Source: an uncultured delta proteobacterium (GTDB taxonomy: Bacteria; Desulfobacterota; RBG-13-43-22). Taken from it: 64,000 bases of DNA. The stretch spans positions 832,001 to 896,000 of the forward strand of contig CAWBOS010000012.1 in the NCBI GenBank assembly GCA_963790475.1, given 5' to 3'. A program made the position numbers and the translations under genes. Shown piece after piece: positions 4,408 through 22,831 of the stretch (position 1 is its first letter; every line of letters starts with the position of its first letter). The notes under the pieces were generated by a model that was not told where the DNA came from, searched no databases, and worked only from the letters and a program-made list of their open reading frames with translations.

Positions 4408-5640
4408 TTAAAATTTCTTAAGAGAAAGCGTACCGAAAATAGGAAACTCGGCTACGAACTGGGCCCCTTGCCCAGGTTCACTGGTGACATAAAGTTCTCC
4501 CCCGTGTTTTTGTATGAGGGCATAGGTAACCCACAGTCCCAAACCGGTTCCCTTGGGCTTGGTTGAGAAAAAGGGCTCAAAGATTTTAGACTTATCTTCC
4601 AGAGGGATTCCGCATCCGGTGTCGGATACCTCTACCTTGATACACTTTCGGTCAGCGCTCAGGTGGCTTACGACGGTAATGGTTCCTTTCTCTTCTATGG
4701 CCTGAATGGCGTTAAGCAATAGATTAATGAAAACCTGATGAATCTGGTTCTCGTCCAGGAAGATGTTAGGCACTTGTCTGGAAAGATGTTTGTCTATTTG
4801 TATATGCCGGAGTTTGAACTCGTTATCCAGGATGTGGAGGGCCTTTTCAACAACGTTGTTCACATTGGCTAAGACCATTTTGGGTTCACTTTCACGAGAA
4901 AATTCCAAAAGGTCCTGGATAATCGTTTTACATCTTAAAGCTTCCTGTATGATAATCTCCAATACTTCTTTAGTGGGTCCATCCTTGGAGGATTTTTTGA
5001 GGAGATTCGTACTATACAGCAGGATACCAGCCAGAGGGTTATTGATTTCATGGGCAACGCCGGCGGCCATTCGGCCTAAAGCCGATAATTTTTCAGTTTG
5101 CAGGACCAGTTGATCGTATCGGGATTGCTGCTTTTCCAAAAGTTGCGCTTTTTGGATGACGGCGGCGCCCCGTTCGGCGATAAGGATGATATAGTTGAGC
5201 TCTTCTTTTGAAAATTCCCTCGGTTCATCAAAAAAGACACGCAGCAAACCTACAATATCGTTCCCGAGAAAAATCGGTAAGTCAAGGATCATCCGAATGC
5301 CTTCATCCCAGGCCTCTTTCGGGTATTGAACCCGGGGATCATTTAAGATATCCCTGATGATAATGGCTTTATTCTGCCGGAACAAATCGGTAATAACCAC
5401 TTGGCTTGAGACCGGTCCTTTGGAAAGATAATGATCCCCTAAACCGTAGGCGGCTCCTAATTCCATTTCCTGAGTTTCGAGGTTAAAAATCCGAATCAGT
5501 GCCCCTTTTGATTTAAGCAATTCGCTGACCTTCATGACCACAGTATGCAATACATGCTTTACCTGGGTATTGGAATTCAAAGAGGCGCTGATATATCGAA
5601 GAACGTTATAGCAGCTTTCAAAGTCTATGCCTTGGCCCAC
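4408..5640 (-). CDS. Cytoplasmic GAF-domain sensor histidine kinase
   Basis: N-terminal GAF-like region; H-box AHEINNPL, N-box NLLLNAIQA, DTGCGI, FFSTKPKGTGLGL; no TM segment evident. Confidence 0.93.
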   Translation of the reverse strand: MGQGIDFESCYNVLRYISASLNSNTQVKHVLHTVVMKVSELLKSKGALIRIFNLETQEMELGAAYGLGDHYLSKGPVSSQVVITDLFRQNKAIIIRDILNDPRVQYPKEAWDEGIRMILDLPIFLGNDIVGLLRVFFDEPREFSKEELNYIILIAERGAAVIQKAQLLEKQQSRYDQLVLQTEKLSALGRMAAGVAHEINNPLAGILLYSTNLLKKSSKDGPTKEVLEIIIQEALRCKTIIQDLLEFSRESEPKMVLANVNNVVEKALHILDNEFKLRHIQIDKHLSRQVPNIFLDENQIHQVFINLLLNAIQAIEEKGTITVVSHLSADRKCIKVEVSDTGCGIPLEDKSKIFEPFFSTKPKGTGLGLWVTYALIQKHGGELYVTSEPGQGAQFVAEFPIFGTLSLKKF

Positions 5641-5857
5641 CGAACTGCCTGCCTTTACTGTCTGGGTTTATAATAAGTATAATATATTATACACCCATAA
5701 CTAAATAAAAAAATTATAAAAATAATCCTTAATGATTAAAATCCCCTATAAATTTTTATACGATTTTGCAGGCTGAGATTTCTGAAGGGTCGGCCACCAG
5801 TATCATAATCTATTGAAAAAAGGGGTAAAATAATAGAAAGGGTCCATGGGCAGGATT

Positions 5858-6139: not shown

Positions 6140-6637
6140 ATGGACCGGTACTCTATTCGAGATACTCAGAAAAAAGAAAATAACATAGCGGAAATACTTG
6201 AAGGATTTGATATCAAATCGGATGGACTGATTCCTATGCTTCAGGCTGTCCAGGGGGTTTGGGGTTTTCTGCCGAAACCGGCTTTTCCGGAAATAGCCCG
6301 TTTGATGAAATTATCGGTCGCCGAGGTTTTCGAGACGGCCTCATTTTATTCTCAATTCCGATTTGAACCGACCGGGAAATATCTCGTCCGAGTCTGTTGT
6401 GGAACGAACTGCCATATTCAAGGGTCAGAGCGGATTTTAGAAGATATTCAAAATCATTTATTAGTGTCTCCGGGAGGGACTACGAAAGACAGATTATTTA
6501 CCCTGGAGACCGGTTACTGTTTTGGTTCCTGTGCTCAGGCCCCCGTTATGGTCGTCGAGGATTCCGTTTACCCACGTATGAATCGCTTCAAAGTTCAAAA
6601 AATTTTAAATGCAATAGGGATAAGGGAGAAAGGATAA
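6140..6637 (+). CDS. NuoE/HoxE-like [2Fe-2S] subunit
   Basis: ASFYSQF, C-x4-C (CCGTNC) and C-x3-C (CFGSC) thioredoxin-like 2Fe-2S ligands. Confidence 0.9.
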   Translation: MDRYSIRDTQKKENNIAEILEGFDIKSDGLIPMLQAVQGVWGFLPKPAFPEIARLMKLSVAEVFETASFYSQFRFEPTGKYLVRVCCGTNCHIQGSERILEDIQNHLLVSPGGTTKDRLFTLETGYCFGSCAQAPVMVVEDSVYPRMNRFKVQKILNAIGIREKG

Positions 6638-6753
6638 ATGATCTAAAACCAACAAGGACATAATCCGGATCCGGTAGGGGCTTTTTAACTTACCCAAAAG
6701 GTGTTTTGAAGCTCTTCGGGAGAGGCTCTTTATTCAATAAGGATATTAATAAA

Positions 6754-8511
6754 ATGATCAATAATATTCCCACGGTTTGTAGCTTCTGTAATACAGGGTG
6801 CGGGATGTTTGTTCGCAAGGGGGGGGAGGAAGCGGTCGGGATTCTTCCCATCATCCGTCATCCGGTCAATGAAGGACGTCTCTGTCAGCGGGGATGGAAC
6901 CGCTACCAAAATCTGAGAAGTATGAATCGCCTGACCCATCCCCTGACCCGAAGGGGCTCCCGATTAGGAAAAACAGGGTGGGATGAAGCCCTCCAGATCA
7001 GCAAAGAAAAGATTTCCTCTATTCTAAACCTGTATGGCCCTCAAGCCATAGGCGTTATCGGATCCCCCTGGTTGACGAACGAAGATAATTTTCGCGTCTC
7101 TCTTTTTTGCCGTCAGGCGCTTAAAAGCAATAACCTGGACGGAAGTTACCGATTCGGCGGCGCAGCGGCCCTGACCGCCTTAAATGATACCTGGTCCGGG
7201 GCTCTGGGATCTTTGGCTTCTATACAATCCCTAAAAGAAAGTCCGGCTATTTTGGTAATTGGAAGGGAGAGCCTGCGTGATTTCTCTCCGGTTGGGGCCC
7301 AAATGATTCAAGCCTATCAGCAGGGGTCCAAACTCATTTTGGCAGATCCCACCTGTCTCCAGGCCGAAGGCTTTTTTAATGCTTTTCTACCTTATCCGGC
7401 GGACAAACTTGCTCACATGTTTAAAGGAAAAAAAGAAATAGCGGAGGACCTGGTCCGGCTCCTGGCCCAACCGGAATCAGCTATCGTGTTTATTGCCGAT
7501 CAAATAAAAACGGCCTCCAGTCTGTTGAGTCTCCTCAGTGTTATTTCGCAGGATCGCCCCGACTCCCAGACGATTCCCATGATGATCCCTCTGAGCCGCT
7601 CTCCGAATCTCCGGGGGGCCTGGGACATGGACATAAAACCTAAAAACGGGGGATTAACCCTCCAGGAGATGCTGGATCTTCCCAACGTGATAAAGGGTCT
7701 TCTCGTTTTTGGTGATGATCTGCTCAACCACCTCCCCTCATTCGCCTTTATGGAAAAACTGAAAAACCTTGAATTTCTGCTGGTCGCGGATCGTTTCCTC
7801 ACTGATACGGTACAGATTGCTGATTGTGCCTTTCCAATTCCTGTTCTGGCCGAAGGGACAGGGACTCTGACCAATTGCGAAGGAAGGGTCCAACAACTTC
7901 GTCCGGTTTTAAGTCCAAAGGAAGAGATTCGCCCCCTCTCCTATCTGCTCAGTTCTTTATCCCGAAAGTTGGGGATTAACCTCCCCGCGCAGTCGGATAG
8001 AGATGTGAGAAAAGAAATCAGCCGGGCCATTCCTCATTATCAAACTATCAGTGACGAATCAGAACTGGATTCATCCCAGGGTATCGTCCTGTCCTCTGTT
8101 AATCACCCGGCCATACCATCGGTCCCCTCTGAAACGCGGGAAGGTCCACAAGAACCGGGGAAATATCGCCTTTTCATTCCCAACACCTTATACGCCTGGA
8201 ATCGGAATCAAATGATTTTGGACTCTCCCCTTCTAAAGATCGAGTATCCGGAAGACCGGAAGGCCCTAAGAATGAACCGCCAGGATGTCCGGGATCTCAG
8301 ACTTCGTCCCGGTGAAAAAATTAAGGTGCGCTCAGAGCATGGCGATGCACAAATAGGCGTGGAAATAGACGATACGCTTCCTCCCCGGACCCTGGTGTTG
8401 CCCATGCATTTTTCAACCGTTATAGAAAATTTAGCCGGAAAAAGGGAATTTGATCATATAACCAATTATTCGTACTGTCCGGATCTATCGGTAACCCTGG
8501 AGAGAGTCTGA
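6754..8511 (+). CDS. Molybdopterin-oxidoreductase-fold protein (FdhA/NuoG-like) with an N-terminal [4Fe-4S] motif; canonical Mo ligand absent
   Basis: CSFCNTGC...GRLCQRG Fe-S motif; TNED; GTLTNCEGRVQ; C-terminal MGD-binding-like domain; NNLDGSYRFGG where FDHs have D-x-CARL-C/U-H. Confidence 0.8.
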   Translation: MINNIPTVCSFCNTGCGMFVRKGGEEAVGILPIIRHPVNEGRLCQRGWNRYQNLRSMNRLTHPLTRRGSRLGKTGWDEALQISKEKISSILNLYGPQAIGVIGSPWLTNEDNFRVSLFCRQALKSNNLDGSYRFGGAAALTALNDTWSGALGSLASIQSLKESPAILVIGRESLRDFSPVGAQMIQAYQQGSKLILADPTCLQAEGFFNAFLPYPADKLAHMFKGKKEIAEDLVRLLAQPESAIVFIADQIKTASSLLSLLSVISQDRPDSQTIPMMIPLSRSPNLRGAWDMDIKPKNGGLTLQEMLDLPNVIKGLLVFGDDLLNHLPSFAFMEKLKNLEFLLVADRFLTDTVQIADCAFPIPVLAEGTGTLTNCEGRVQQLRPVLSPKEEIRPLSYLLSSLSRKLGINLPAQSDRDVRKEISRAIPHYQTISDESELDSSQGIVLSSVNHPAIPSVPSETREGPQEPGKYRLFIPNTLYAWNRNQMILDSPLLKIEYPEDRKALRMNRQDVRDLRLRPGEKIKVRSEHGDAQIGVEIDDTLPPRTLVLPMHFSTVIENLAGKREFDHITNYSYCPDLSVTLERV

Positions 8512-8512
8512 G

Positions 8513-9583
8513 ATGGAAAGATACAGTCTTCGGAAAGACGCTCTGAATGCCTGGATTGAAGCGATGCTGGACCACCGTCAAGTTCTGGCCCCCTCCCGCA
8601 TTGAGCAGGAAATTTTTTTCAAGCCCGTAGAAATCGCTCCGGATCAGGAGTTGCTGGAGGGGACGGCCGTTCTTCCTTACCTGCCGCCCAAAGATATTGT
8701 TTTTCCCCAGTCCGAAATCATGTTCTCTTTCTCCGGCGAGGGGGAAGAGTTGAGTCTGGAAGTTCCGGGGGGATCAGAGACAAATTCTGTCATCTTAGGC
8801 ATAAGACCCTGCGATACCCGGGGTATTTCTTGGCTGGACCATTTTTTTTCGGAAAATTTCGACGATTTCTATTATTCCCGCAGGAGGGACAAGGTCGCTC
8901 TGGTTACCATTGCCTGTAACCAACCGGGAAAGAACTGTTTTTGCATCTGTTGTCAGGGGGGGCCTTTCCTGGAACCCGAAAGTGAGGAATGTGACATCCA
9001 ACTTATATCTTTCCAAGACCGATATCTGGTGGGATGTCAAAGCGCCCGGGGGAAAGAACTGATCAATATGCGGCCTGAGCTCTTTTCCAGCCCTGAGGCC
9101 GGCAGTGAAGAAATTTGGTCCAATCTGGAAGAAGAGTCCCGAAAGATGTTTTTCCCGGACCCTACCTCCTATATGAGCACGGCCATCCGCCGGATCACTT
9201 CAAACGAAGTCCCTTCGGAGGTCTGGACGGAATTGGGAGAGCGATGTTTTGATGACGGGGGTTGTTCCTTTGTCTGTCCCTGCTGCAGTTGTTTCGGAGT
9301 CGGTTACCTGGCCAACGGCGAAAAGGGATGTCATTACCGATACTGGGATTCTTGCGATTATTCAGGTTTTACCCGGGAGGTTTCCGGACATAATCCCAGG
9401 ATGGATAAAGGCGAGCGGTTCAAAAGGAGATTTTTCCATAAACTCAGTTATCAATATCTGAAAAAGGATGGAAGGATCGGTTGTGTGGGCTGTGGAAGGT
9501 GCATCACCGTCTGTCCTGGGGACATAGGTATGCCCCAGGTGGTCGAGAGAATTCGAAAGGCCCAGGCCGGACGGGAACTTTAA
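8513..9583 (+). CDS. 4Fe-4S dicluster protein, AsrA/HydB/FlxB-like
   Basis: GIRPCD, CxxxxxxCFC, CPCCSCF, WDSC, RFKRRFFHK, CVGCGRCITVCP. Confidence 0.88.
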   Translation: MERYSLRKDALNAWIEAMLDHRQVLAPSRIEQEIFFKPVEIAPDQELLEGTAVLPYLPPKDIVFPQSEIMFSFSGEGEELSLEVPGGSETNSVILGIRPCDTRGISWLDHFFSENFDDFYYSRRRDKVALVTIACNQPGKNCFCICCQGGPFLEPESEECDIQLISFQDRYLVGCQSARGKELINMRPELFSSPEAGSEEIWSNLEEESRKMFFPDPTSYMSTAIRRITSNEVPSEVWTELGERCFDDGGCSFVCPCCSCFGVGYLANGEKGCHYRYWDSCDYSGFTREVSGHNPRMDKGERFKRRFFHKLSYQYLKKDGRIGCVGCGRCITVCPGDIGMPQVVERIRKAQAGREL

Positions 9584-9706
9584 ATAGAAATTAAACCCTA
9601 CCCTCATGTGGGAGTATATCAGGGAAGAAAGTGCCATAGCAGGGCAACTGACTTGAAAACACGGAATATCACTCTCCTGTCTAGGAATCTAATTCCGCAT
9701 CAGCGG

Positions 9707-9736
9707 GACTGGACCCCGGCCTTCGCCGGGGTGACG
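9707..9736. repeat. REP-like half element (CTGGACCCCGGCCTTCGCCGGGGTGAC)
   Basis: Hairpin homologous to the 5907 element. Confidence 0.65.
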
Positions 9737-9825
9737 AGCAATCCGATTTTCGGAAGTGACCGGAAGCTCGCAAAAATTTTTTCGATGTTGATTGGCTAAT
9801 CAATAAGAGGGGTAAAAATTAAATT

Positions 9826-10656
9826 ATGGATAATGGCTACATTCCCCAGTTGGCTCGGATTGTCGAAATCCAAACGGAGACCTACGATACCAAGAGTTTT
9901 GAGTTAGAATTTGTCGAGTCCCAGGGGAAAGACGAATTCCGATTCAAACCCGGCCAATTTGTTGAAGCCTCGGTTTTGGGTGTGGGGGAAGCCCCTTTTG
10001 GCCTGTCCTCTAATCCGAATCACCCTTCAACTTTCCGGATCACGGTTCGGGCAGTCGGTTCCGTAACCCAGGCCCTTCACCAGCTTAAAGCCGGAGATCG
10101 GATAGGGATTCGGGGCCCCTTCGGAAACGGGTTTCCTTATGATGGAGTCAAAGGGAAAAATATTCTCTTCGTTGGGGGCGGTATCGGACTCCCCCCCCTC
10201 CGATCCCTTATCGAGCCCATGCTTGAAGCCCGATCGGATTTCAAGGACATTCAGATCCTTTACGGTGCCCGCACCCCGGCCGACCTTGTCTATAAGGACC
10301 GTTTGGTGGAGTGGGCTAAAATGAAGGACCTGAGATTCATGATGACCGTGGATGTGGGTGACCCCACCTGGACCGGCGATGTCGGGGTGGTGACTACCCT
10401 CTTTCCTAAAGCGGACCTTAAGGTGGATGATTCCGTGGCCTTCGTCTGCGGTCCTCCTATTATGATTCAATTTGTCATTAAAGGACTGATCCAGCTGGGT
10501 GTCCATCCGAAAAATATCATCTCCACCCTGGAGCGCTATATGAAATGCGGGATCGGAAAATGCGGACATTGTGCCATTGGCCATAAATATATTTGTCTGG
10601 ACGGACCGGTTTTTTCCTATCAGGAGATGCTGAAGCTACCGGAAAAAGTAGTTTAG
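9826..10656 (+). CDS. FAD/NAD(P)-binding [2Fe-2S] protein, AsrB/HydG/FlxA-like
   Basis: FKPGQF, GEAPF, RGPFGNGF, GGGIGLPP, VCGPP, ERYMKCGIGKCGHC...CLDGPVF. Confidence 0.92.
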   Translation: MDNGYIPQLARIVEIQTETYDTKSFELEFVESQGKDEFRFKPGQFVEASVLGVGEAPFGLSSNPNHPSTFRITVRAVGSVTQALHQLKAGDRIGIRGPFGNGFPYDGVKGKNILFVGGGIGLPPLRSLIEPMLEARSDFKDIQILYGARTPADLVYKDRLVEWAKMKDLRFMMTVDVGDPTWTGDVGVVTTLFPKADLKVDDSVAFVCGPPIMIQFVIKGLIQLGVHPKNIISTLERYMKCGIGKCGHCAIGHKYICLDGPVFSYQEMLKLPEKVV

Positions 10657-10662
10657 AAGGGG

Positions 10663-12693
10663 GTGAATACCGTGTGGACCCTGAATGCTTTGATTGTCAC
10701 CGTTTTAGCGGGGATACTTCTCATTGCCATTTTCGCCCGATCCCGTCGAATCTGCGGGCTGATCGGGGTGGTCACCGTAGGGGTCATCACCGGGATCATT
10801 AGTTATATATCCTATCAAGTCTTTACGGTCGGGCCTCTGACCCTTGAGCCCATTTTCTCCATCCTTGCTCTGGGGGCTGATTTCTCAATCGGTGTGGACT
10901 ATTTGAGCGCCGTCTTTTTACTGCTGATCGGGGGCCTGTCCTTTTTAGGCACCCTCTATTCCTATCGTTATATGGACCACTACGCCACCCAGTCCCTGTC
11001 CCGCTTCTACCATTGTTTGATTCTCTTTATCGTCGGCATGATCGGGGTGGTCTGTCTGACTGATTTGTTTTTCTTTTTTGTCAGTTGGGAATTCATGACC
11101 CTTTCCTCCTACTTTTTGGTGACTTATGAAAAAGAGGATCCCGTTAACCTCAGGGCCGGTTTCAAATACTTTCTTATGACCCATATCGGTACCGCCGCCA
11201 TGTTCATCGGGGCCTTGATCCTGCAAACCGAGGTAGGGTCTTTTGCCTTTTCCCGTCTGGGAGAATCCATGGCCGGCATGATGGGGACCAGTCCGGTCAA
11301 ACTCTCTATTATTCTGGGCCTCTTTCTCTTAGGATTTGGGACCAAGGCGGGAATGTTCCCGGTTGGAACCTGGTTGCCTGACGCCCATCCCGCCGCCCCC
11401 TCCGGGGTTTCGGCCATGCTCTCCGGGGTGATGATTAAAATGGGCATCTACGGTATTTTTCGTTTCTTCTTTTTCCTCCTTCCCCCGTCGCCCTATTCCG
11501 TGGCCTTCGGCATAGCCATCGGGGCTCTCGGTGCCATCTCCATTTTCATGGGAACTATCTCCGCCCTCCTTCAGCATGACTCCAAGCGATTACTGGCTTT
11601 TCATTCCATCGGCCAAATCGGGTACATTCTTTTAGGCCTGGGGACCGGACTGGTATTCCTTAGGGGCTACCCCGCCCTGGCTATAACGGCTACCTTGGGG
11701 GGAATGCTTCATGTGTTCAACCATGCCCTTTTTAAAGGGCTCCTCTTTTTAAACGCCGGCTCCATACTTTATAAAACCGGAACGAGGGATCTAAACAAAC
11801 TCGGCGGGCTTTATTTTGCAATGCCCATTACGGCCTGGACCACCCTCATAGCCTCCTTTTCCATTGCCGGCCTGCCTCCTTTCAACGGCTTTATAAGTAA
11901 ATGGCTCATTTATGAGACGACGATCTTAGGGGGAGTTCAAAACCCTCTATTTATCCTTTTCGGTCTGATAGCCATTTTCATCAGTACGGTTACCTTGGCC
12001 TCCTTTATAAAATTTTTCACCACTGCCTTTAGCGGAGAAATGGATAAAACTCTGGCCAACAATCTTCTGCCTGGGGTTGATGTCCCTTTTTCCATGCAGC
12101 TTCCCCAGGTCATCCTGGCCTTTTCCTGTCTCTTTTTCGGTATTTTCCCCTGGATACCGCTCAAGATGATGTATTGGTCTTTAACGGGTTCCGCTTTTGG
12201 TTCCCATTTGCCGGCTCTGAACGATATCTTCGGCAGCTCCATCCTCGGTCTGACCTTGAGTCCGGGGTGGCCCCTGGTCGGTTCCTGGCTCCCCATCCCC
12301 GGGGTAATCCTCATGTCCGGCTGCTTCTTGCTGGCCTTCTGGATATCCAGGATGGCCAGACCGGTCAAGCGAACCGTTCCCCTTTGGACCTGCGGAGAGG
12401 TCTTTGAACCCAAGGAGATCAGATTTCCTGCGGAAAATTATTATGTTCCTCTGGTTTCCCGGTTCGAAGGATTAATCTATCCCGAATCGCCTTTGGACAG
12501 GATAAAATCTCCTCAAAAAATTTACAGAGGGCTGGATTTAGATGAGGTTCTTTATTATCCCCTAGCGGACCTGGTGGTTCGTATCTTTCAGAAATTCCGG
12601 AAGAGCCATGTGGGGACTCCGCAGGTTTATTTGCTTTATCAAGTGATAGGGATTTTAATTTTAGTGGCGGCCATGCTTATCTGGCTTTATTAA
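10663..12693 (+). CDS. hyfB: Hydrogenase-4 antiporter-like membrane subunit (HyfB/HycC)
   Basis: SWEFM, GFGTKAG, WLPDAHPAAPSGVSAMLSGVMIK, NHALFKGLLFL, LPPFNGFISKW, WTCG. Confidence 0.88.
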   Translation: MNTVWTLNALIVTVLAGILLIAIFARSRRICGLIGVVTVGVITGIISYISYQVFTVGPLTLEPIFSILALGADFSIGVDYLSAVFLLLIGGLSFLGTLYSYRYMDHYATQSLSRFYHCLILFIVGMIGVVCLTDLFFFFVSWEFMTLSSYFLVTYEKEDPVNLRAGFKYFLMTHIGTAAMFIGALILQTEVGSFAFSRLGESMAGMMGTSPVKLSIILGLFLLGFGTKAGMFPVGTWLPDAHPAAPSGVSAMLSGVMIKMGIYGIFRFFFFLLPPSPYSVAFGIAIGALGAISIFMGTISALLQHDSKRLLAFHSIGQIGYILLGLGTGLVFLRGYPALAITATLGGMLHVFNHALFKGLLFLNAGSILYKTGTRDLNKLGGLYFAMPITAWTTLIASFSIAGLPPFNGFISKWLIYETTILGGVQNPLFILFGLIAIFISTVTLASFIKFFTTAFSGEMDKTLANNLLPGVDVPFSMQLPQVILAFSCLFFGIFPWIPLKMMYWSLTGSAFGSHLPALNDIFGSSILGLTLSPGWPLVGSWLPIPGVILMSGCFLLAFWISRMARPVKRTVPLWTCGEVFEPKEIRFPAENYYVPLVSRFEGLIYPESPLDRIKSPQKIYRGLDLDEVLYYPLADLVVRIFQKFRKSHVGTPQVYLLYQVIGILILVAAMLIWLY

Positions 12694-12775
12694 GGGATGG
12701 GAAATTCCTTTAAAAGGGATTTTTCTTAATCAAAATTTTTAAGCTTAATTAATTAATGAGTATAAGGAGAAAGAA

Positions 12776-14461
12776 ATGGCCTTTGAAAACGGCGAAAAAT
12801 TAATGGTCCATTTAAGGGAAAAATTTCCAACAGAGATAATCTCCGCCAGGGAATGGGTCCCAATGAAAGTTTTCATAACCATCCGCCGGGTATCCATTCG
12901 ACCCCTGGCCGAATATATCTTCCGCGGTTTGGGGGCCCGGTTTAATACCATCGTCGGGATGGATCGGCGGCCCACCCATGGGGATTTTCAAACCACTCAT
13001 ATTTTTTCCCTCGATTCGGACAAACTTTTTGTCCTGCTCCAGTCTTCCATACCTCAGGACCAGCCGATGATCGACTCCGTCACCCCCTTGATCCCGGGGG
13101 CCAATTGGGCCGAAAGGGAAATCCGAGATCTGGTGGGGATCAACTTTGCCGGTCATGGGGACCCCCGCCGTCTGGCCCTTCCGGATGACTGGCCGGAAAA
13201 CCTTCACCCGCTGCGCAGGGATTTTGTCTATAATTTTCGCCCTGAACCAGTCGAGGGGCAGGCTCCCAAACCGGTTGAAGCACCCGGAAAGGCCACGGTA
13301 TTTCCTATCGGCCCCTTCTTTCCGGTATTGGAGGAGCCGGCGGCCTTCCGGGTCTTCCTGGAAGGGGAAACCGTGGTAGGCTGTGATTATCGTGGTTTTT
13401 ATAACCACCGGGGAATTGAGAAAATTGCCGACTCGGTTCTGACCTATAATCAGATTCCCTTCATCGCCGAGCGTATATGAGGCATCTGAGGGTATATTCA
13501 CAGTACGTGTTACTGTGAGGCCGTTGAAGAAGCTGCTGGGATTGAGGTTCCTCCCCGGGCCCGGTATATCCGGAGCATTTTACTGGAGCTGGAGCGCCTT
13601 CACTCCCATCCCCTCTGGCTGGGGATCGGGGGTCATGTTTTGGGATTTGACACGATTCTCATGCAGACCTGGCGCATACGGGAACCGGTGATGTGGCTTT
13701 GTGAGCAGATCACCGGGAACCGGAAGACCTATGGTATGAATCTGATCGGGGGTGTCCGCCGGGACATTACCCCGGAGATGAAACCCAAAATTTTAGAGGT
13801 CATCGATCATCTGGAAAAGGAATGGTTGAAGGTGATCGAAGCCATCAGTGGGGATACGCCCCTGATGATGCGTCTCAAAGGCGTTGGGGTGCTCAGGCAT
13901 GAGGACGCCGTCGACTTTTGCGTCACCGGGCCTACGGCCCGGGGGTCCGGTGTGGCCATCGATTCCCGGGTTGATCATCCCTACGCCGCCTATGGGGATC
14001 TGGTTCCGGAAAAAAAGGTCCATGAAGAGGGGGACATCCTGGCCCGCACCCTGGTTCGCCTGGAGGAGACCCTGGAGTCCGTCCGTCTGGTCCGCCAGGG
14101 GATCCAGGAAATTCCCGAGGGCCCGATTATGGCTGACATCCCTGAGGAAATCCCCGCCGGACGGGAAGGAGTCCGGGTGGTTGAAGCGCCTCGGGGGGAA
14201 TCGATGCATTATGTGCTGACCGGGGAGAACAACCGTCCCTACCGCTGGAAAGTGAGGGCCCCGACCTATATGAATCTGGAGTCAGTGGCGGTAATGATTC
14301 AGGGGCTTGAACTGGCCGATGTTCCTATCGCCATAGCCAGCTATGACCCCTGCTTTTCCTGTACCGAACGGTTAGAGGTGGTGGATCGTCAAAGCGGAAA
14401 AATTCGTATCTATACTCATGGCCAACTGGTCCAACTGAGCCGGGACAAAAGGAATAGGTGA
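12776..14461 (+). CDS. hycE: Group 4 [NiFe]-hydrogenase large subunit (HycE/HyfG, NuoCD-like) with two in-frame TGA codons (13478-80, 13487-89) at the L1 Cys positions; predicted selenoprotein, 561 aa
   Basis: The track ORFs 12776-13480 and 13640-14461 share one frame. Read-through gives FYNHRGIEK...AERI-U-GI-U-GYIHS...ELERLHSH. L2 motif is DPCFSCTER, followed by a cleavable C-terminal tail. Confidence 0.9.
13497..13519 (+). promoter_or_regulatory. Putative bacterial SECIS hairpin
   Basis: Perfect 7-bp stem CACAGTA/TACTGTG (extendable to 9 bp) with apical loop CGTGT; loop lies 16 nt after TGA2 and 25 nt after TGA1. Confidence 0.72.
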
Positions 14462-15369
14462 AAATGAACAACATCATCACTTCAGCCTTGATAAATTTGC
14501 TTCTGGTAATCCTGGCCGCCCCTTTTTATGAAGGTATTCTGCGAAAGCTCAAGGCCTTCGTTCAATCCCGTCAGGGACCTCCGCTTCGGCAGCCTTTTTG
14601 GGATCTCTTAAAGTTGTTGGGGAAAGAAAACCTTCAGGTCACCCGAAACCCCATTTTTTCACTGGCCCCCATTATCACCTTCGGAAGCGTCCTGATGGCG
14701 GCTTTATTTGTCCCCATGGGCTCGGCCCCTCCTTTCGGATTTGCCGGTGACCTGATTGTCCTGATTTATCTTCTCACCCTGGCCTCAGTAGGGGTCATGC
14801 TGGGAGGGTCTGTTTCAGGAAGTCCTTACGGGGTAATCGGGATGGGCCGGGAGATGATGTTGGCCATGATGGTCGAGATCATTGTTCTGGGAAGCCTGAT
14901 CGTCGGGGCGATGCAGACCAAGTCCTTTGACTTAGGACAAATCTCATCCTGGTATCGAAAAGCCGGCCCCAATCTTTCTATGATCGTGGCGGCCATCCCC
15001 TTCCTGCTCTGTCTTCAGGTTCTAGTCGGCAAAATCCCCTTTGACCTTCCTGAGGCCGATCAGGAAATCATGGGAGGCCCTTTTGTGGAGACCCCAGGGG
15101 CCCGGCTGGCCCTTTACAAGTGGAGCTATTTCGCCAAACAGATTATCTGGGCCTCAATCTTTTGGGAAATTTTTATCCCCTGGCCCAAAACCGGATATTA
15201 TCCTCTTGATCTGATCATTCATCTGATAAAGATTTTAATAGTCCTCCTTCTGGTCGGATTGGTTGATGCGGTAAATCCTCGTCTCCGGGTAGATCAGGGC
15301 ATACGGTATTTTTCCGGTATTTGGATAATCCTAATTCTGGCTGTGGCTTTTGCCGTGATCGGAGTTTAA
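14458..15369 (+). CDS. hyfC: Hydrogenase membrane subunit HyfC/HycD (NuoH-like)
   Basis: RKLKAFVQSRQGPP..QPFWDLLKLLGKE, KIPFDLPEADQEIMGG, NPRLR. Confidence 0.9.
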   Translation: MKMNNIITSALINLLLVILAAPFYEGILRKLKAFVQSRQGPPLRQPFWDLLKLLGKENLQVTRNPIFSLAPIITFGSVLMAALFVPMGSAPPFGFAGDLIVLIYLLTLASVGVMLGGSVSGSPYGVIGMGREMMLAMMVEIIVLGSLIVGAMQTKSFDLGQISSWYRKAGPNLSMIVAAIPFLLCLQVLVGKIPFDLPEADQEIMGGPFVETPGARLALYKWSYFAKQIIWASIFWEIFIPWPKTGYYPLDLIIHLIKILIVLLLVGLVDAVNPRLRVDQGIRYFSGIWIILILAVAFAVIGV

Positions 15370-15523
15370 TAGGATGCGTAATAACCTTTTTATTACAGGT
15401 TGCTCAAAAAGGCCCAGATACAAGGCGCCTGAAACTCCGAGGAACGAGTCGTACATAGACGTACGGCGCAGTGAGGAGGGGTGAGGGCAACGCAGTAGAT
15501 GGACCTTTTTCAGCAACCTGTTA
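15367..15523 (+). mobile_element. MITE-like element, copy 1 (125-bp core 15396-15520 plus conserved outer segment)
   Basis: Ends CAGGTTGCTCAAAAAGG...CCTTTTTCAGCAACCTG-TTA; clearly homologous to copies at 16728 and 55378. Confidence 0.8.
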
Positions 15524-15536
15524 GGAAGGTGATCCA

Positions 15537-15983
15537 ATGTTCAAAAGCAAAATGAAGGAAGCCATCATCTGCTTTAAAGCCGGGCGGGTGACCGCCCCCT
15601 TTCCTTTGGGGCCTGAGCCGAATCCTCCCCAGGAGGGCTATCGGGGTAAGATCGCCGTGGATGTAGAAAAATGTATCGGCTGCGGAGGTTGTGCCAATGT
15701 TTGTCCGCCCCGCCTGATTAAAATCACCGATACCGACCAAACCCGCGTCCTCGAATATTTCCTGAGCCGTTGCACCTATTGCGGTCGATGTGCCGAGGTC
15801 TGCCCGGAGGAGGCCATTACCATGACCCGGGAATACCAGTTGGCGACCAATGATGTGAACGACCTTTATATCCGGTCCGAGCTTTATATGGGGACCTGCG
15901 GACGGTGTGGACGATGCTTTAAGCCCAAAACCATTCTCGACAAAATGATGGTGACCGGATTTCAACCAGGGGATTTATCCTAA
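15537..15983 (+). CDS. hyfH: Hydrogenase 2x[4Fe-4S] subunit HyfH/HycF (NuoI-like)
   Basis: YRGK, CIGCGGCANVCP, CTYCGRCAEVCP, extra CxxC. Confidence 0.9.
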   Translation: MFKSKMKEAIICFKAGRVTAPFPLGPEPNPPQEGYRGKIAVDVEKCIGCGGCANVCPPRLIKITDTDQTRVLEYFLSRCTYCGRCAEVCPEEAITMTREYQLATNDVNDLYIRSELYMGTCGRCGRCFKPKTILDKMMVTGFQPGDLS

Positions 15984-16025
15984 ATCAGGCTATAACCTTC
16001 AAAAGGTAGAAACGGACAGGAAAAG

Positions 16026-16691
16026 ATGGAACCTTGGACTAAACTTATCTCCGCTTTGAGTCTTTCGCTGATTCTCACGGCCTACCTCATCATCGAGATA
16101 AAAAACCTGCGCTATGCGACCTATGTTTATATCCTCCAGGCCCTTTTGATGTGCAGTCTCTTTTTGGCTTACGCCGGCCAAAACCCCAGGCTCTATTACT
16201 GGGCCTTGACCGCCTTGGTTACCAAGGTGTTTATTATCCCCTTTATGCTTTTGCGAACCATCCGCCGGACCAAGGTCCTGGAAGTTCCTCCCGTGATCGG
16301 GTACTTAGGATCCATCATCTTCCTTACCGTGGTCATCGTTATTTTTTACCGCCTTACGCATAAATATGTTGATTTCATCGCCCCCACTCCCCTGGCCACC
16401 CAGGAGCCTTTTCGGACCAATCTGGCGGTAAGCCTGGCCCTGTTTGTCATGGGGTTATATTGCATCCTGGTCCGGAGAGATGCCATCAAAGCTGTTCTGG
16501 GGCTTACCATTTTACAAAACGGGGTTCACCTCTCACTGGTCACCCTGGTCCCCCTGCTTGAAGAAACCGGCGTTATCGGGATCGTCACCGATCTGGTCAT
16601 CGCCGTCGTTCTCTTGCTCTATATTACCCAGGGGGTTTACGAGAAATTCGGATCAACGGATACCTTCAACCTTAAGGAACTTCGATGGTGA
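16026..16691 (+). CDS. hyfE: Hydrogenase-4 membrane subunit HyfE (NuoK-like C-terminus)
   Basis: Multi-TM; TKVFIIP, QNGVHL; operon position. Confidence 0.8.
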   Translation: MEPWTKLISALSLSLILTAYLIIEIKNLRYATYVYILQALLMCSLFLAYAGQNPRLYYWALTALVTKVFIIPFMLLRTIRRTKVLEVPPVIGYLGSIIFLTVVIVIFYRLTHKYVDFIAPTPLATQEPFRTNLAVSLALFVMGLYCILVRRDAIKAVLGLTILQNGVHLSLVTLVPLLEETGVIGIVTDLVIAVVLLLYITQGVYEKFGSTDTFNLKELRW

Positions 16692-16702
16692 AAAATGGAG
16701 AT

Positions 16703-16855
16703 TAACAGGTTGTGGAAACCCTTTTTGCAGGTGGCTCAAAAAGGTTCAGATGCAAGGCGCCCGAAGTTCCTTGGCATGAGGCGTAGTTTAATCTACGTCG
16801 GAATGACAAGGGATGAGGGCAACGCCGCAGATGGGCCTTTTTCAGACACCTGTTA
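16703..16855 (+). mobile_element. MITE-like element, copy 2 (core 16728-16852)
   Basis: 125-bp core homologous to copies 1 and 3. Confidence 0.8.
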
Positions 16856-16868
16856 AGGAATGTATAAT

Positions 16869-18359
16869 ATGGACTGGGAAATCCTCTATCTTTTGCTGGC
16901 CCCCACCTTGACCGGATTTTTTATTTTTATTTTTGGGAAAAAGTCCTTTTATTGGAGTGAAGGACCGGCTCTCTTAGGGTCGGCTATCACCTTGGGCTTC
17001 TCGGGCTGGATTTTTCTTCAGACCACACGAGGTGAAGTTCTATCATTCTATCGTGATGAATTCAGGGTTGACGCCTTGAGCGGGTTGATGGTTGGGCTGG
17101 TGGCCTTCCTCGGTTTTATAGCCATTATTTATTCCTTTTCTTACATCCGGAAAGAAGTGGTCGAGGAAGTCATCCCACCTGAGAAATTACATTCGTATTA
17201 CGGTTGGCTGATGCTTTTTCTGGCCTCCATGCTCTGGGCCGTGACCACCAACAATGTTTACCTTCTCTGGGTAGTTATCGAAGGTACCACCTTGGCTTCG
17301 ATTATCCTGGTATCCTTCAACTGGTCCCGGGAGGCCCTGGAGGCAGGTTATAAATACGCCCTGCTTTTGACCGTAGGGATTACCTTTGCCCTTTTTGGCT
17401 GCATTCTCCTCTATGCCGGATCTTCCCCCCATATTCCCCCGGGACTGGATCCACTCAAAATCAGCGAGATTGCCAAGGTGGCCGGGAAGATACCTCGGAG
17501 CATTGCCCTGGTGTCGGTCATTCTTCTCTTGGCCGGTTTTGGAACCAAGGCGGGTGTTGTCCCTTTTCACACCTGGCTTCCGGATGCCCATGCCGAAGCC
17601 CCTACCCCGGTCAGCGCCCTGCTTTCCGGGATCATGATCAAGGTGGGGATTTATGCGGTCATTAGAACCGTTCTGATCTTCTATTCTTTTTATTCCGTCA
17701 TCAGCCTTCTGGTCCTCATTCTCGGGGTAATAACCATGATTGTGGGCCTGGTGATGATGTTCCTCCAGGACGATGCCAAACGATTTTTAGCCTTTTGCTC
17801 CGTGGTCAGTGTGGGATATATATTCATGGGCCTGGGCCTGGGCAGTTATTTGGGGATCTATGGGGCCATATTTCATCTGATCAATCATTCCCTGATGAAG
17901 GCCCTGGCCTTTTTGTCTCTCGGTGGAGTGATTTATGCCACCCGCTGTCGGAAGATATCCGAACTGGGGGGGGTGGGAAAATTGATGCCGGTAACCGCTT
18001 TAACCTTTTACGTTTCGGCCCTGGCCCTAAGCGGCATCCCCCTGTTTAATGGATTTGTCAGCGAGTTTACCATCTTTCTGGCCGGAGTGAAGGCCGGTTA
18101 TTTGTGGGCGACGATCATCGCCATCGTGGTGTCTGTTCTGACTCTGGCGGCCTTTATCCGGGTCAGCGCTCGGATATTCATGGGGACCCTGCCTCAGAAT
18201 CTGATGAATTTGCCGATCCGAGAAGTTCCACCAACCATGTGGGGAGGGGAAATTCTCCTGGCTGCCCTCTGTATATTGATCGGGGTCTATCCTCAGTTGA
18301 TTTATCAAGTCCTTCATGAGGCGACCAAGGCGATTTTTGCGATGATGCCCATGCCTTAA
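16869..18359 (+). CDS. hyfF: Hydrogenase-4 antiporter-like subunit HyfF (NuoM/N-like)
   Basis: WVVIEGTTLAS, EAGYKY, GFGTKAGVVPFHTWLPDAHAEAPTPVSALLSG, NHSLMKALAFL. Confidence 0.88.
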   Translation: MDWEILYLLLAPTLTGFFIFIFGKKSFYWSEGPALLGSAITLGFSGWIFLQTTRGEVLSFYRDEFRVDALSGLMVGLVAFLGFIAIIYSFSYIRKEVVEEVIPPEKLHSYYGWLMLFLASMLWAVTTNNVYLLWVVIEGTTLASIILVSFNWSREALEAGYKYALLLTVGITFALFGCILLYAGSSPHIPPGLDPLKISEIAKVAGKIPRSIALVSVILLLAGFGTKAGVVPFHTWLPDAHAEAPTPVSALLSGIMIKVGIYAVIRTVLIFYSFYSVISLLVLILGVITMIVGLVMMFLQDDAKRFLAFCSVVSVGYIFMGLGLGSYLGIYGAIFHLINHSLMKALAFLSLGGVIYATRCRKISELGGVGKLMPVTALTFYVSALALSGIPLFNGFVSEFTIFLAGVKAGYLWATIIAIVVSVLTLAAFIRVSARIFMGTLPQNLMNLPIREVPPTMWGGEILLAALCILIGVYPQLIYQVLHEATKAIFAMMPMP

Positions 18360-18369
18360 AGGGGGGAAC

Positions 18370-18882
18370 ATGTTAAAAAAATTAATCGATAAGGCCCAGT
18401 TCAAATCACTCTGGGTCTACCATGCCAATACGGGTGCCTGCAATGGCTGTGATATCGAGGTGATTAATGTCTTGACCCCCTATTATGATGCGGAACGTTT
18501 TGGAATCAAGCTGGTTGGCTCACCCCGTCATGCCGATGTTTTGCTGGTTTCGGGCCCGGTGACCCGACAGGTGGCCCCGGCCTTGCTTAGGCTTTATGAG
18601 GCCGTCCCCAGTCCAAAATTGGTGTTTGCCATCGGGGGCTGCCCTTCAGGAGGAGGAATGTTTTTTGACAGTTATGCCACCTTGGGGGGGTTGAACAAAG
18701 TCATCCCGGTTGACTTTTATATTCCCGGATGCCCGCCCAGGCCAGAGGCGATCCTCTATGGCGTAGCCGTGGCCTTAGGTCTGGCCCCTAAAAAAACGGC
18801 CCCCATCATGTCTTCCCAGGTCTTTCCGGAGGAGATTCTTCAAAAAATCGAACAAGGGGAATTAATCCATGAACAAAAATAG
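18370..18882 (+). CDS. hycG: Group 4 hydrogenase small subunit HycG/HyfI (NuoB-like)
   Basis: ACNGCDIE, GSPRHAD, GGC, IPGCPPRP. Confidence 0.92.
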   Translation: MLKKLIDKAQFKSLWVYHANTGACNGCDIEVINVLTPYYDAERFGIKLVGSPRHADVLLVSGPVTRQVAPALLRLYEAVPSPKLVFAIGGCPSGGGMFFDSYATLGGLNKVIPVDFYIPGCPPRPEAILYGVAVALGLAPKKTAPIMSSQVFPEEILQKIEQGELIHEQK

Positions 18883-19810
18883 AATCCTCTCTTATTGGGC
18901 AACCGCCGTTTTTATTGTGGCCTTTTTGGGATTGGGGGTCGGCTGTAAAATGGCTAAACCCTATAAAGGAGAGGCAAAGATTCTGGTTGCTCCTGCTCCT
19001 TTTTCCCTTTCCATGGTAGAGGCCCGATTTTTATTTTTAACCGATTACTTGACGGAACAAACGGGTTGGAAGATAGAAACTGTCGTCGCCCCCTCCAGCC
19101 TGGATGAGTTTCTTAAAATACTTAGCGCTCAAAAGATAGCCTTTTCCTTTCAAAACCCTTATTTCTATCTCTATCTGGCCGAAAAACACGGGGCAGTCCC
19201 CTTAGTCAAGACCGTCTCTCTGGACGGCTTAACGGAATTCCGGGGGATGATTATCGCCCAAGAAAAAAGTCCCATCAAATCGCCGGGTGATTTGATCGGC
19301 AAAAAAATCCTGGTTTCCGATCGTAACTCTGTGGGTGGATTTTTAGCCCAATATATGCTTCTCAAGGATTTTGGATTGGATCCGGAAAAAGAATTGATTT
19401 TTTCATTCGGAGACACACAGGAAAAAATAATGGAAAAGGTGGCCTTGGGGCAGGCGGAAGTAGGATTTATCCGGGAAGATGTGCTTCAGTCCATGATCCG
19501 GGCCAAGGGGAGCATGACCGGAGTGAAGGTCATCGCCTTAACCCCTTTCCATCCTACCCATTGTCTGGTGAGCTACCCCAAGACGGATCCGGTTCTGAGC
19601 GAAAAGGTAAAAACAGCCCTACTAAATTTAACTCCCGAGAATCCTTCCCATCGATTTATCCTGGAACGTTTGAGGATTTCCAGATTTACCCAGGCTTCCG
19701 CTGAAGAATACCAGACCTTCAAGAAGGTCCTTATGCTCCACGGGCTTTTCGTTCCTGGTCCGCTCTCTAAGTTGAAAGAGCAGGAGACAAAAGGTGATCC
19801 CGGTCTTTAA
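18869..19810 (+). CDS. PhnD/PtxB-like phosphate/phosphite/phosphonate-binding lipoprotein
   Basis: Lipobox-like LGVGC; FRGMII...DLIGK...SVGGFLAQ pattern typical of the phosphonate-binding fold; overlaps the hycG end by 14 nt. Confidence 0.75.
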   Translation: MNKNRILSYWATAVFIVAFLGLGVGCKMAKPYKGEAKILVAPAPFSLSMVEARFLFLTDYLTEQTGWKIETVVAPSSLDEFLKILSAQKIAFSFQNPYFYLYLAEKHGAVPLVKTVSLDGLTEFRGMIIAQEKSPIKSPGDLIGKKILVSDRNSVGGFLAQYMLLKDFGLDPEKELIFSFGDTQEKIMEKVALGQAEVGFIREDVLQSMIRAKGSMTGVKVIALTPFHPTHCLVSYPKTDPVLSEKVKTALLNLTPENPSHRFILERLRISRFTQASAEEYQTFKKVLMLHGLFVPGPLSKLKEQETKGDPGL

Positions 19811-19822
19811 AAAGAGAAAAAA

Positions 19823-20347
19823 ATGCCGGACCATTACCCCCCGGACCTGAAAACCCTGGAGTCCTTTATTCATCCTTCCTATCCGGGTCGTGTCGTCACT
19901 CTGGGAGTAGGGAATCGGCTTCTGGGGGATGATGGAACCGGGCCTGAACTGGTGACCAGACTCAAAGAAAACTGGGAAGGGAGTGAAATACAGGACGATT
20001 TAAGGGGCAACCGATTTTTTATCGATGCAGAAGAAAATCCGGAGGATTGGTTTATCAGGGTCCTCGAACTTCAGCCGGCGGTCATCATAGTAATCGATGC
20101 CGTGGCCATGCAGGCCGAACCAGGGAGTGTGGCCGTGCTTGAGGCCCAGGCCTTGCCGGAAAGTCTCCTCTATTCCACTCATCGTTTGTCCCTCAGAAGT
20201 CTTCTTCAACTCTGGGAGGAAAACGGCTGCCGGGCCCTGGTCCTGGCCATCCAGCCGGAAACCCTGAACATCGGCCAAGGATTGTCTCTACGGGTAAAAG
20301 AGAGTATTAATCAACTTATCCATTTTCTTTCCCCCTGGTCACCTTAA
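19823..20347 (+). CDS. hycI: Hydrogenase maturation endopeptidase (HycI-like)
   Basis: LGVGNRLLGDDGTG, ENPE, IDAV, STH, IQP. Confidence 0.88.
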   Translation: MPDHYPPDLKTLESFIHPSYPGRVVTLGVGNRLLGDDGTGPELVTRLKENWEGSEIQDDLRGNRFFIDAEENPEDWFIRVLELQPAVIIVIDAVAMQAEPGSVAVLEAQALPESLLYSTHRLSLRSLLQLWEENGCRALVLAIQPETLNIGQGLSLRVKESINQLIHFLSPWSP

Positions 20348-22197: not shown

Positions 22198-22665
22198 ATG
22201 GAGGAAAACAGTCTGAATGAATTCATGACCATGGCCCTAAGGGAGGCCGAAAAGGCCGGCCTTGAAGACGAGGTTCCCGTGGGAGCGGTTTTGATCTGCT
22301 CTGGCGGGGAGGTCCTGGCTGCTGATCATAACCGGACCAGACAGTTGAACGATCCAACGGCCCATGCCGAAATTTTAGTTTTAAGAAGAGCCGCCCATGT
22401 TCTAAATAATTTTCGGCTGCCGGAAACGACATTGTTCGTTACCATCGAACCCTGCTTGATGTGTGCCGGAGCAATGGTCCAGGCCCGTGTGGATCGGGTT
22501 GTTTTTGGAACGGCTGATCCCAAGGCCGGTGCTTTAGGGTCCCTTTGTGATGTTTCCAAGGATAAGCGATTGAATCATCGCTTTGAGGTGGTTTCAGGGG
22601 TCCTGGAAACGGAATGCCGGGACCTGATTCAAAAATTTTTTAATAACAAGCGCGGCAAGTTATAA
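22198..22665 (+). CDS. tadA: tRNA adenosine(34) deaminase
   Basis: EVPVGA, DPTAHAE, EPCLMCAGA, DPKAGA, LNH. Confidence 0.95.
   Translation: MEENSLNEFMTMALREAEKAGLEDEVPVGAVLICSGGEVLAADHNRTRQLNDPTAHAEILVLRRAAHVLNNFRLPETTLFVTIEPCLMCAGAMVQARVDRVVFGTADPKAGALGSLCDVSKDKRLNHRFEVVSGVLETECRDLIQKFFNNKRGKL

Positions 22666-22737: not shown

Positions 22738-22831
<94 letters not shown>

Follow-up and report, generated by a model that had tools for sequence, protein, structure and literature searches.

The stretch of DNA analysed here, referred to as the window, comprises 64,000 nucleotides of contig CAWBOS010000012.1 (assembly GCA_963790475.1) from an uncultured delta proteobacterium of the Desulfobacterota, and our subject is its gene for the large subunit of a [NiFe] hydrogenase, in which TGA stands in place of both cysteine codons of the L1 motif. 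The gene belongs to a 13-gene cluster (6140-20347, plus strand) whose members are collected in Table 1. Enzymes of this kind have already been described in silico by Takano, Inoue, Aono, Ochi, and Mihara (Front Microbiol 2026;17:1925269, PMC13582414; September 2026), to whom we credit the discovery itself. The instance in the window is real, and a preliminary description made from the sequence alone had interpreted it correctly.

A check of the reading frame revealed that the gene is a single frame of 561 codons with a TGA terminator and that its internal stops are limited to the two TGA triplets at codons 235 and 238. These are found in the context GAG CGT ATA TGA GGC ATC TGA GGG TAT ATT CAC, which reads E-R-I-stop-G-I-stop-G-Y-I-H. 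Gene callers split such genes, here under translation table 11 into open reading frames at 12776-13480 and 13640-14461 of one common frame that is actually open from 13490, and enzymes of this type are therefore under-counted in annotation. When solved structures were searched with phmmer, residues 6-560 aligned with subunit 5 of the formate hydrogenlyase from Escherichia coli (7z0s_E, E = 6.5e-129), with ERI-x-GI-x-GYIH lying opposite DRVCGICGFAH, such that the TGAs coincide with both L1 cysteines. One frame with TGA placed exactly on these two positions is what the preliminary description had claimed, and the frame and the alignment bear it out; the HycE motif given there (ERVCGICGFAH) gave the right L1 register but differs by one letter from that of 7z0s_E. 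The Pfam families matched are PF00329 (Complex1_30kDa), PF00346 (Complex1_49kDa), and PF00374 (the N-terminal part of NiFeSe_Hases). Toward the C-terminus, the L2 motif is intact, with both of its cysteines encoded (TGC...TGT), and the tail of 29 residues between it and the stop is predicted to be cleaved off. That this motif and tail, the other subunits, and HycI are all intact had been stated as well, and we found them so. With its L1 register, its L2 motif joined by a tail and an endopeptidase, and its Complex-I-like partners, the product has the features of a group 4 [NiFe] large subunit, and judging from its sequence we regard it as the catalytic large subunit of a membrane-bound, formate-hydrogenlyase-like enzyme of this group. 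The mark of the classical [NiFeSe] hydrogenases, selenocysteine (Sec) at the first cysteine of the C-terminal motif, is absent, as L2 reads DPCFSCTER.

The TGA bases themselves are confirmed chiefly by the independent assemblies of relatives, among both genome and metagenome loci. Besides these, a contig from the public run X1 (Logan) covers 13300-13642 with 0 differences, though X1 is possibly the source sample, and contigs from X2 (depth 31.6) and X4 span the site with none of their listed differences at 13478-13489, these two not being counted as confirmation. A 214-nt contig from the peat metatranscriptome library X17 matches 13571-13784 with 4 differences, which is a weak hint that the gene of a relative is transcribed, DNA carry-over being possible.

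Conservation of the UGA codons and of a downstream hairpin

Related loci were gathered from genomes, with one genome taken per species (50 loci), and from metagenomes (80 loci). Among the former, seven carry TGA..TGA (75-91% identical), one carries TGA..TGT (L015, 88%), two carry TGC..TGA (55-56%), and the remaining 40 have cysteine codons at both positions. The metagenome loci comprise 20 of the UxxU form, one UxxC (on a contig identical to that of L015), four CxxU, and 50 CxxC, together with five that do not cover the motif. Both TGAs are retained at 26 non-duplicate related loci from many assemblies, and the in-frame UGA lies opposite cysteine in homologues, as expected of a selenoprotein gene. 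In a sample of 401 genomes from the phylum, ten had a match with E <= 1e-100, four of these with two TGAs and one with a single TGA at L1. Conserved TGA-xx-TGA forms and Cys-only orthologues were thus both found, and the recurrence of the former in the genome and metagenome sets supports the earlier claim of programmed recoding and excludes chance mutation.

Several other matches were considered as Sec forms and rejected. Five relatives in the same order gave such matches (38-40% identity, each with one TGA noted inside), and the four that were fetched (L076-L079) have cysteine throughout L1 and L2, their TGA or TAG being the stop of each gene. The same holds for L073 (genome G394, one TGA), which is CxxC with the TGA as its stop.

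A quick maximum-likelihood tree was built from 54 rows, with duplicates (L057, L066-L069) and truncated sequences (L031, L048) left out, and with values of the Shimodaira-Hasegawa-like approximate likelihood ratio test (SH-aLRT) as the only support measure. Here, all eight UxxU rows group with the UxxC row in a single clade (SH-aLRT 100) whose sister is a Cys-type row (97), and the two CxxU rows form a clade of their own. L015 is nested as the sister to the window and L020 (SH-aLRT 93, not starred). This locus (the same as L066 and L086) is from the same genus as the window and shares its hairpin (motif at L015:3694-3726), its UxxC form resting on a single assembly. The simplest reading of the tree would be one origin of UxxU in the clade, with a later change from TGA to TGT in L015.

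For the window paired with five relatives (5 computable pairs; in two pairs dS was not computable for one or both parts), the ratio of nonsynonymous to synonymous substitution rates (dN/dS) was 0.035-0.109 over codons 239-561, compared with 0.075-0.253 over codons 1-234. The part past the UGAs is therefore under protein-level constraint at least as strong as that on the upstream part. Under table 11 the frame is broken twice, which could be taken as the sign of a pseudogene, of a gene that yields only an N-terminal product of 234 residues, of sequencing error, or of a genome-wide reassignment of TGA. The downstream dN/dS and the 26 loci with TGA..TGA stand against this, as do the conserved maturation protease and the intact state of all subunits. 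Moreover, three of the 13 genes in the cluster end in TGA, and the two L1 codons are the only in-frame TGAs in all 13, which excludes reassignment. As far as sequence allows, this set of explanations is refuted.

A hairpin resembling a selenocysteine insertion sequence (SECIS) starts 9 nt past the second UGA. The G that is conserved in its loop (13507) completes a Thr codon (ACG) as its third base and is located 29 nt from the first base of the first UGA (UGA1) and 20 nt from that of the second (UGA2). Of the 564 columns across nine close-clade sequences, 314 keep one amino acid for which several codons exist, and a single codon is used in only 20 of them. Six of those 20 columns are consecutive, namely codons 242-247 (HSTCYC, 13499-13516), which are the hairpin, while the next-longest run is 2. 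We counted the coupling of hairpin and UGA over 112 non-duplicate loci (33 Sec-type, 79 Cys-type). All 33 of the Sec-type loci have at least 6 of the 7 stem pairs (7 of 7 in 30 loci) along with G at loop position 1 or 2; among the Cys-type loci, the full 7 pairs never occur, a single locus reaches 6, and the loop G is present in 17. Those Cys-type loci with the identical peptide HSTCYC (n = 23) reach a maximum of 5 of 7 pairs, because other synonymous codons are used. Within the UxxU loci, the sole variable base of the hairpin is the last one of the loop, either T or C. The downstream stem-loop with G at loop position 1 or 2 that is expected of a selenoprotein gene is accordingly present, and this UGA-coupled hairpin, together with the downstream dN/dS, strongly supports programmed UGA recoding at both L1 positions, as first proposed. 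An Rfam scan of 13400-13620 with E up to 10 gave no SECIS family, which is uninformative either way; its only matches, to NsiR4 (12.3 bits) and sR39 (9 bits), were at chance level and on the opposite strand.

A second hydrogenase large subunit with a UGA is encoded in the same genome on C12, the contig of the window, about 75 kb before the window start (C12:755620-757257, minus strand; loci L080/L181). This subunit is group-1-like (NF033181, 591.7 bits against a cut-off of 600), and its L1 motif reads R-A-C-G-V-TGA-T-Y-T-H, with TGA at the second L1 cysteine (CxxU), while L2 has cysteine. Its invariant hairpin has 8 bp and the loop GGU, with the UGA placed 26 nt from the loop G. Both UGA and hairpin are kept in eight of eight same-genus loci (L181-L188), and two homologues of 62-63% identity (L189, L190) have cysteine and no such hairpin. 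N-terminal CXXU was previously known in two group 1 sequences (Baltazar et al. 2011, as given in PMC13582414).

Selenocysteine machinery and the inserted residue

In the genome (6.34 Mb, 20 contigs, 100% complete by markers, 9.68% contaminated), selA, selB, selC, and selD are all present, so that the Sec machinery on which the preliminary description depends is there. The tRNA-Sec (74.3 bits) has 98 nt, the anticodon UCA, and the discriminator G; selB (390.6 bits) is the single selB-class match over the cut-off; and selD (394.1 bits) has an in-frame TGA of its own at the Sec/Cys site, for which no clear minimum free energy (MFE) hairpin was seen. For selA (629.5 bits), the intact copy is at C20:490-1848 (plus strand) on a 3.2-kb contig, and a second, broken copy at C13:443305-444664 (plus strand) is split into four pieces that fall in different frames, and it contains one TAA. 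This duplication may stem from strain duplication or assembly indels, given the contamination of 9.68%. Two short-frame molybdopterin genes (C12:1100873 and C6:564121) were examined as Sec formate dehydrogenases and dismissed, since neither frame continues past its TGA.

UGA may also be decoded at cysteine positions, in a SECIS-dependent manner, by the tRNA-ReC/SelC* system (Vargas-Rodriguez et al. 2018, as given in PMC13582414). The criterion of Takano et al. (PMC13582414) for tRNA-ReC is a length of at least 80 nt, a UCA or GCA anticodon, and the discriminator U, and a search of the genome with ARAGORN, RF01852, and RF00005 found no such gene. Default ARAGORN gave 50 tRNAs, with UCA and GCA anticodons only on the 98-nt tRNA-Sec and on a canonical 76-nt tRNA-Cys. 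The sub-threshold RF01852 matches and 49 RF00005 matches included no further UCA or GCA tRNA, and all were located at ARAGORN genes save for a 58-nt fragment. This partial tRNA-like match (C1:238570-238627, minus strand; RF00005, 41.3 bits, model positions 8-63), which has no ARAGORN call, is 1.2 kb from a tRNA-Arg(ACG). Relaxed ARAGORN settings (-ps85) produced 1051 'tRNAs', of which 30 had UCA or GCA, about the chance share, and without support from RF01852 or RF00005 we rejected these as noise. The alternative offered in the preliminary description, that UGA is read as Cys by a tRNA-Cys(UCA)/SelB-like system, thereby failed to find support, as neither a tRNA-Cys(UCA) nor a tRNA-ReC-like gene turned up in these searches, and this favours Sec over Cys at both sites.

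Our preferred reading, to which we assign a probability of roughly 0.8, is that Sec is inserted at both L1 sites by SelB/SECIS recoding of the two UGAs from one hairpin, giving a UxxU nickel-binding motif; in read-through as such our confidence is higher. Both UGAs (13478 and 13487) would be recoded co-translationally by tRNA-Sec, SelA, SelB, and SelD, with the one SECIS hairpin (13499-13517) directing both events. In the mature enzyme, selenium would serve as a terminal nickel ligand (C1) and as a Ni-Fe bridging ligand (C2), and L2 would give two thiolates.

A number of points weigh against insertion of Sec at both sites. In E. coli, the spacing from UGA to SECIS is strict, so that one hairpin may not suffice for the efficient decoding of two UGAs separated by 9 nt. 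Although the comparative signal is strong, the region of the hairpin has only modest MFE z-scores (-1.78 and -1.15), and with a stem that is invariant in the close clade there is no compensatory covariation. The Sec machinery is found on contigs C6, C10, and C20, and the window on C12. In the genomes of five relatives, tRNA-Sec passes the cut-off in four and selB in three, the misses being in genomes of 82-85% completeness. The tRNA-ReC negative is based on ARAGORN and two Rfam models, not tRNAscan-SE, in an assembly that is 9.68% contaminated. Sec and Cys are indistinguishable in the DNA sequence, from which the inserted residue cannot be read, and protein-level evidence was found nowhere, the published work being in silico too (PMC13582414). 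There, tRNA-ReC-like genes are reported for two of six Desulfobacterota UXXU genomes and are more frequent in UXXU genomes overall (about 56%, versus about 2.3% of other Sec-type genomes), which its authors state as a limitation.

These tRNA-ReC frequencies, and the fact that sequence does not tell Sec from Cys, speak for recoding in which one or both UGAs yield Cys, whether by a SelC*-type tRNA-ReC with CysRS or by Cys-tRNA-Sec at scarce selenium, in which case the hydrogenase would be of the ordinary [NiFe] type or selenated only in part. In other systems, the Sec machinery is known to insert Cys when selenium is limiting. We nevertheless consider this outcome unlikely here, for no tRNA of at least 80 nt with UCA or GCA and discriminator U was found in a marker-complete genome that has a single selB, and a Cys-only outcome would leave TGA at both sites in 26 non-duplicate loci without a reason.

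The unequal spacing of the two codons brings in another alternative, namely that only UGA2 is efficiently decoded, with UGA1 acting mainly as a selenium-dependent brake, so that codon 235 halts most ribosomes and full-length enzyme is scarce. UGA2 is the better spaced of the two (20 nt from the loop G, versus 29 nt), CxxU is commoner than UxxC (27 versus 4; PMC13582414), and two serial recoding events should, we infer, multiply the losses. Set against this, UGA1 is retained throughout the nine close-clade sequences, the same-genus L015 depends on UGA1 alone with an identical hairpin, and in the second hydrogenase of the genome a UGA placed 26 nt from the loop G is at the least conserved, if not also decoded. 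We regard such a brake as very improbable.

With Sec at both sites as our preferred reading, a more far-reaching proposal can be made, toward which we lean only slightly. Here, both UGAs would give Sec from one SECIS, and the native Ni-Fe centre would hold two selenolates, one terminal and one bridging. Taken with the putative bridging Sec of the second hydrogenase, selenium at the bridging position would be a design under selection across the lineage, and spacings of 20, 26, and 29 nt would all be tolerated by a single SelB/SECIS pair.

Known relatives of the enzyme

Takano et al. (PMC13582414) predicted 16 UXXU-type group 4b sequences, with hosts in the Armatimonadota, Desulfobacterota, JAPLJL01, and Acidobacteriota, and proposed that a single SECIS serves both UGAs, with the caveat that tRNA-ReC might insert Cys. 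They also described formate dehydrogenase (Fdh)-like subunits without a molybdenum ligand ('Fdh lacking Cys/Sec') alongside SHI-beta/gamma homologues. The window enzyme shares with theirs the UGA at both N-terminal nickel-ligand codons with C-terminal cysteines, a single SECIS further downstream, with the third base of Thr ACG as its loop G, and a cluster of HyfC/E-like, antiporter-like, ferredoxin, Fdh-like, and SHI-beta/gamma components (PMC13582414). Moreover, L017, from the 100%-supported clade of the window, comes from a JAPLJL01 assembly, and a placement in subgroup 4b is suggested by this shared clade and by agreement with the published description (PMC13582414). Nothing of substance differs from what is given there, and to this is added L015, which is UxxC within the present clade; in the main text of that paper, UXXC is confined to group 4e. 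The preliminary description knew of no characterised enzyme of this kind, and this still holds, as we found no biochemical characterisation of a UxxU group 4 hydrogenase in the literature searched, but the idea had already been published in silico (PMC13582414). Group 4 hydrogenases are absent from the list in a May 2026 review of the prokaryotic selenoproteome (PMC13188914), which gives UxxU motifs in three other predicted bacterial families.

In common with E. coli HycE (7Z0S/7Z0T, group 4a), the window protein has fused NuoC and NuoD parts, the L1 and L2 register, and a tail at the C-terminus that is paired with a protease of the HycI type. However, HycE has four cysteines, two of which are replaced by UGA in the window. 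In E. coli, Sec is found in the FdhF subunit only (Evans et al., PMC8020662), whereas the corresponding Fdh-like subunit of the window has Gly-Gly, and the cluster adds NuoE-like and FAD/NAD(P) modules relative to the E. coli formate hydrogenlyase. With the classical [NiFeSe] enzymes (group 1a of sulfate reducers; group 3 Fru/Vhu of methanogens), the common features are Sec in place of a Cys ligand to Ni-Fe, if Sec is indeed inserted here, and a UGA with a SECIS. Those enzymes have a single Sec at the first cysteine of the C-terminal motif (PMC13582414, PMC8020662), whereas in the window both L1 positions are UGA and both L2 positions are Cys.

In engineered variants of E. coli Hyd-1, Sec could be placed at any of the four ligand positions, the two equivalent to L1 included, with the enzyme still active; a special phenotype was seen for C576U alone, this being where natural [NiFeSe] enzymes carry Sec (Evans et al., PNAS 2021, PMC8020662). 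Each variant of this group 1d enzyme has one substitution, introduced by synthetic recoding, with no double L1 variant given in the abstract (PMC8020662), and these variants are so far the only probes of C1 and C2. If both codons of the window gene insert Sec, this would be a natural [NiFe] site with two selenium ligands at positions where none has been seen in a characterised enzyme, set within the energy-converting group 4 family of respiratory complex I relatives. A native enzyme would then be at hand for testing what the chalcogen does at C1 (terminal) and C2 (bridging), and the gene offers a natural case for asking whether two UGAs spaced by 9 nt can share a single bacterial SECIS. To the published record, the window adds a near-complete genome in which Cys recoding finds no support, and a quantified coupling of hairpin and UGA at synonymous sites. 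Possibly also beyond the main text of PMC13582414 are the same-genus UXXC variant (L015) inside the 4b UxxU clade and, in this genome, the group-1-like hydrogenase with predicted Sec at the bridging L1 position.

The gene cluster and its surroundings

Table 1. Genes of the hydrogenase cluster and elements within the large-subunit gene (window coordinates).
Feature	Position	Strand	Evidence
NuoE-like thioredoxin-like [2Fe-2S] ferredoxin, first cluster gene	6140..6637	+	PF01257, 148.4 bits
Formate-dehydrogenase-like molybdopterin subunit, without Mo-ligand Sec/Cys and adjacent His (Gly-Gly)	6706..8511	+	PF04879/PF00384/PF01568
4Fe-4S dicluster protein (Fer4_22)	8513..9583	+	PF17179, 84.4 bits
FAD/NAD(P)-binding iron-sulfur subunit	9826..10656	+	PF00970/PF00175/PF10418
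Antiporter-like membrane subunit (HyfB/NuoL-like)	10663..12693	+	PF00361, 207 bits; PF00662
Hydrogenase catalytic large subunit (predicted), fused NuoC+NuoD (HycE-like), two in-frame UGA	12776..14461	+	Pfam, 7z0s_E alignment
UGA 1, codon 235, first L1 cysteine position (terminal Ni ligand)	13478..13480	+	TGA in 9/9 close-clade sequences
UGA 2, codon 238, second L1 cysteine position (Ni-Fe bridging ligand)	13487..13489	+	TGA in 8/9 close-clade sequences; TGT in L015
SECIS-like hairpin	13497..13519	+	Core stem 13499-13505/13511-13517; loop CGUGU 13506-13510; fold and conservation
L2 motif DPCFSCTER, then 29-residue tail	14345..14371	+	Frame translation, 7z0s_E alignment
HyfC/HycD/NuoH-like membrane subunit	14458..15369	+	PF00146, 184 bits
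2x[4Fe-4S] ferredoxin subunit (HycF/NuoI-like)	15537..15983	+	Pfam Fer4 families
HyfE/NuoK-like membrane subunit	16026..16691	+	PF00420
Second antiporter-like subunit (HyfF/NuoN-like)	16860..18359	+	PF00361, 214.9 bits
Hydrogenase small subunit (HycG/NuoB-like)	18370..18882	+	PF01058, 105.6 bits
Phosphonate-binding-family lipoprotein-like gene, within cluster	18869..19810	+	PF12974, 156.2 bits
HycI-type hydrogenase maturation endopeptidase	19823..20347	+	TIGR00072, 89.8 bits (above cut-off); TIGR00142 hycI, 84.8 bits (below cut-off of 119.1)

When the Fdh-like subunit was aligned with FdhF (7qv7_S), ...HCARLCHAP... of the chain was found opposite ...GSYRFGGAA... of the query. The subunit is probably no formate dehydrogenase, because Gly-Gly replaces the Sec/Cys-His site, and on this same sequence feature the cluster probably does not encode a formate hydrogenlyase, strictly speaking. 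By analogy with Takano et al. (PMC13582414), the Fer4_22 protein can be named SHI-beta-like and the FAD/NAD(P)-binding subunit SHI-gamma-like. The cluster is syntenic gene for gene in the three UxxU relatives fetched, whose large subunits are 91%, 76%, and 75% identical, the fetched stretch of the third stopping short of HycI. The lipoprotein-like gene, which is located between those for the small subunit and HycI and overlaps the former by 14 nt, is likewise syntenic in all three, at 54-90% identity.

Elsewhere in the window, a scan for other pairs of open reading frames joined by a single TGA gave eight candidates, none with a Cys-like or Sec-like context. Past the cluster, there is a gene for TadA, the tRNA adenosine-34 deaminase (22198-22665, plus strand; 171.2 bits), followed by a tRNA at 22738-22831 (plus strand). 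The latter was considered as a tRNA-Sec and rejected, as it is a tRNA-Ser(CGA) with a sub-threshold RF01852 match of 37.9 bits. On the other side, a scan for promoters and terminators gave a promoter-like site at 5654-5683 and nothing else usable. Divergent from the cluster and upstream of it are the genes for a sigma-54-dependent response regulator (2905-4338, minus strand) and a GAF-domain histidine kinase (4408-5640, minus strand), the products of which possibly regulate the hydrogenase cluster.

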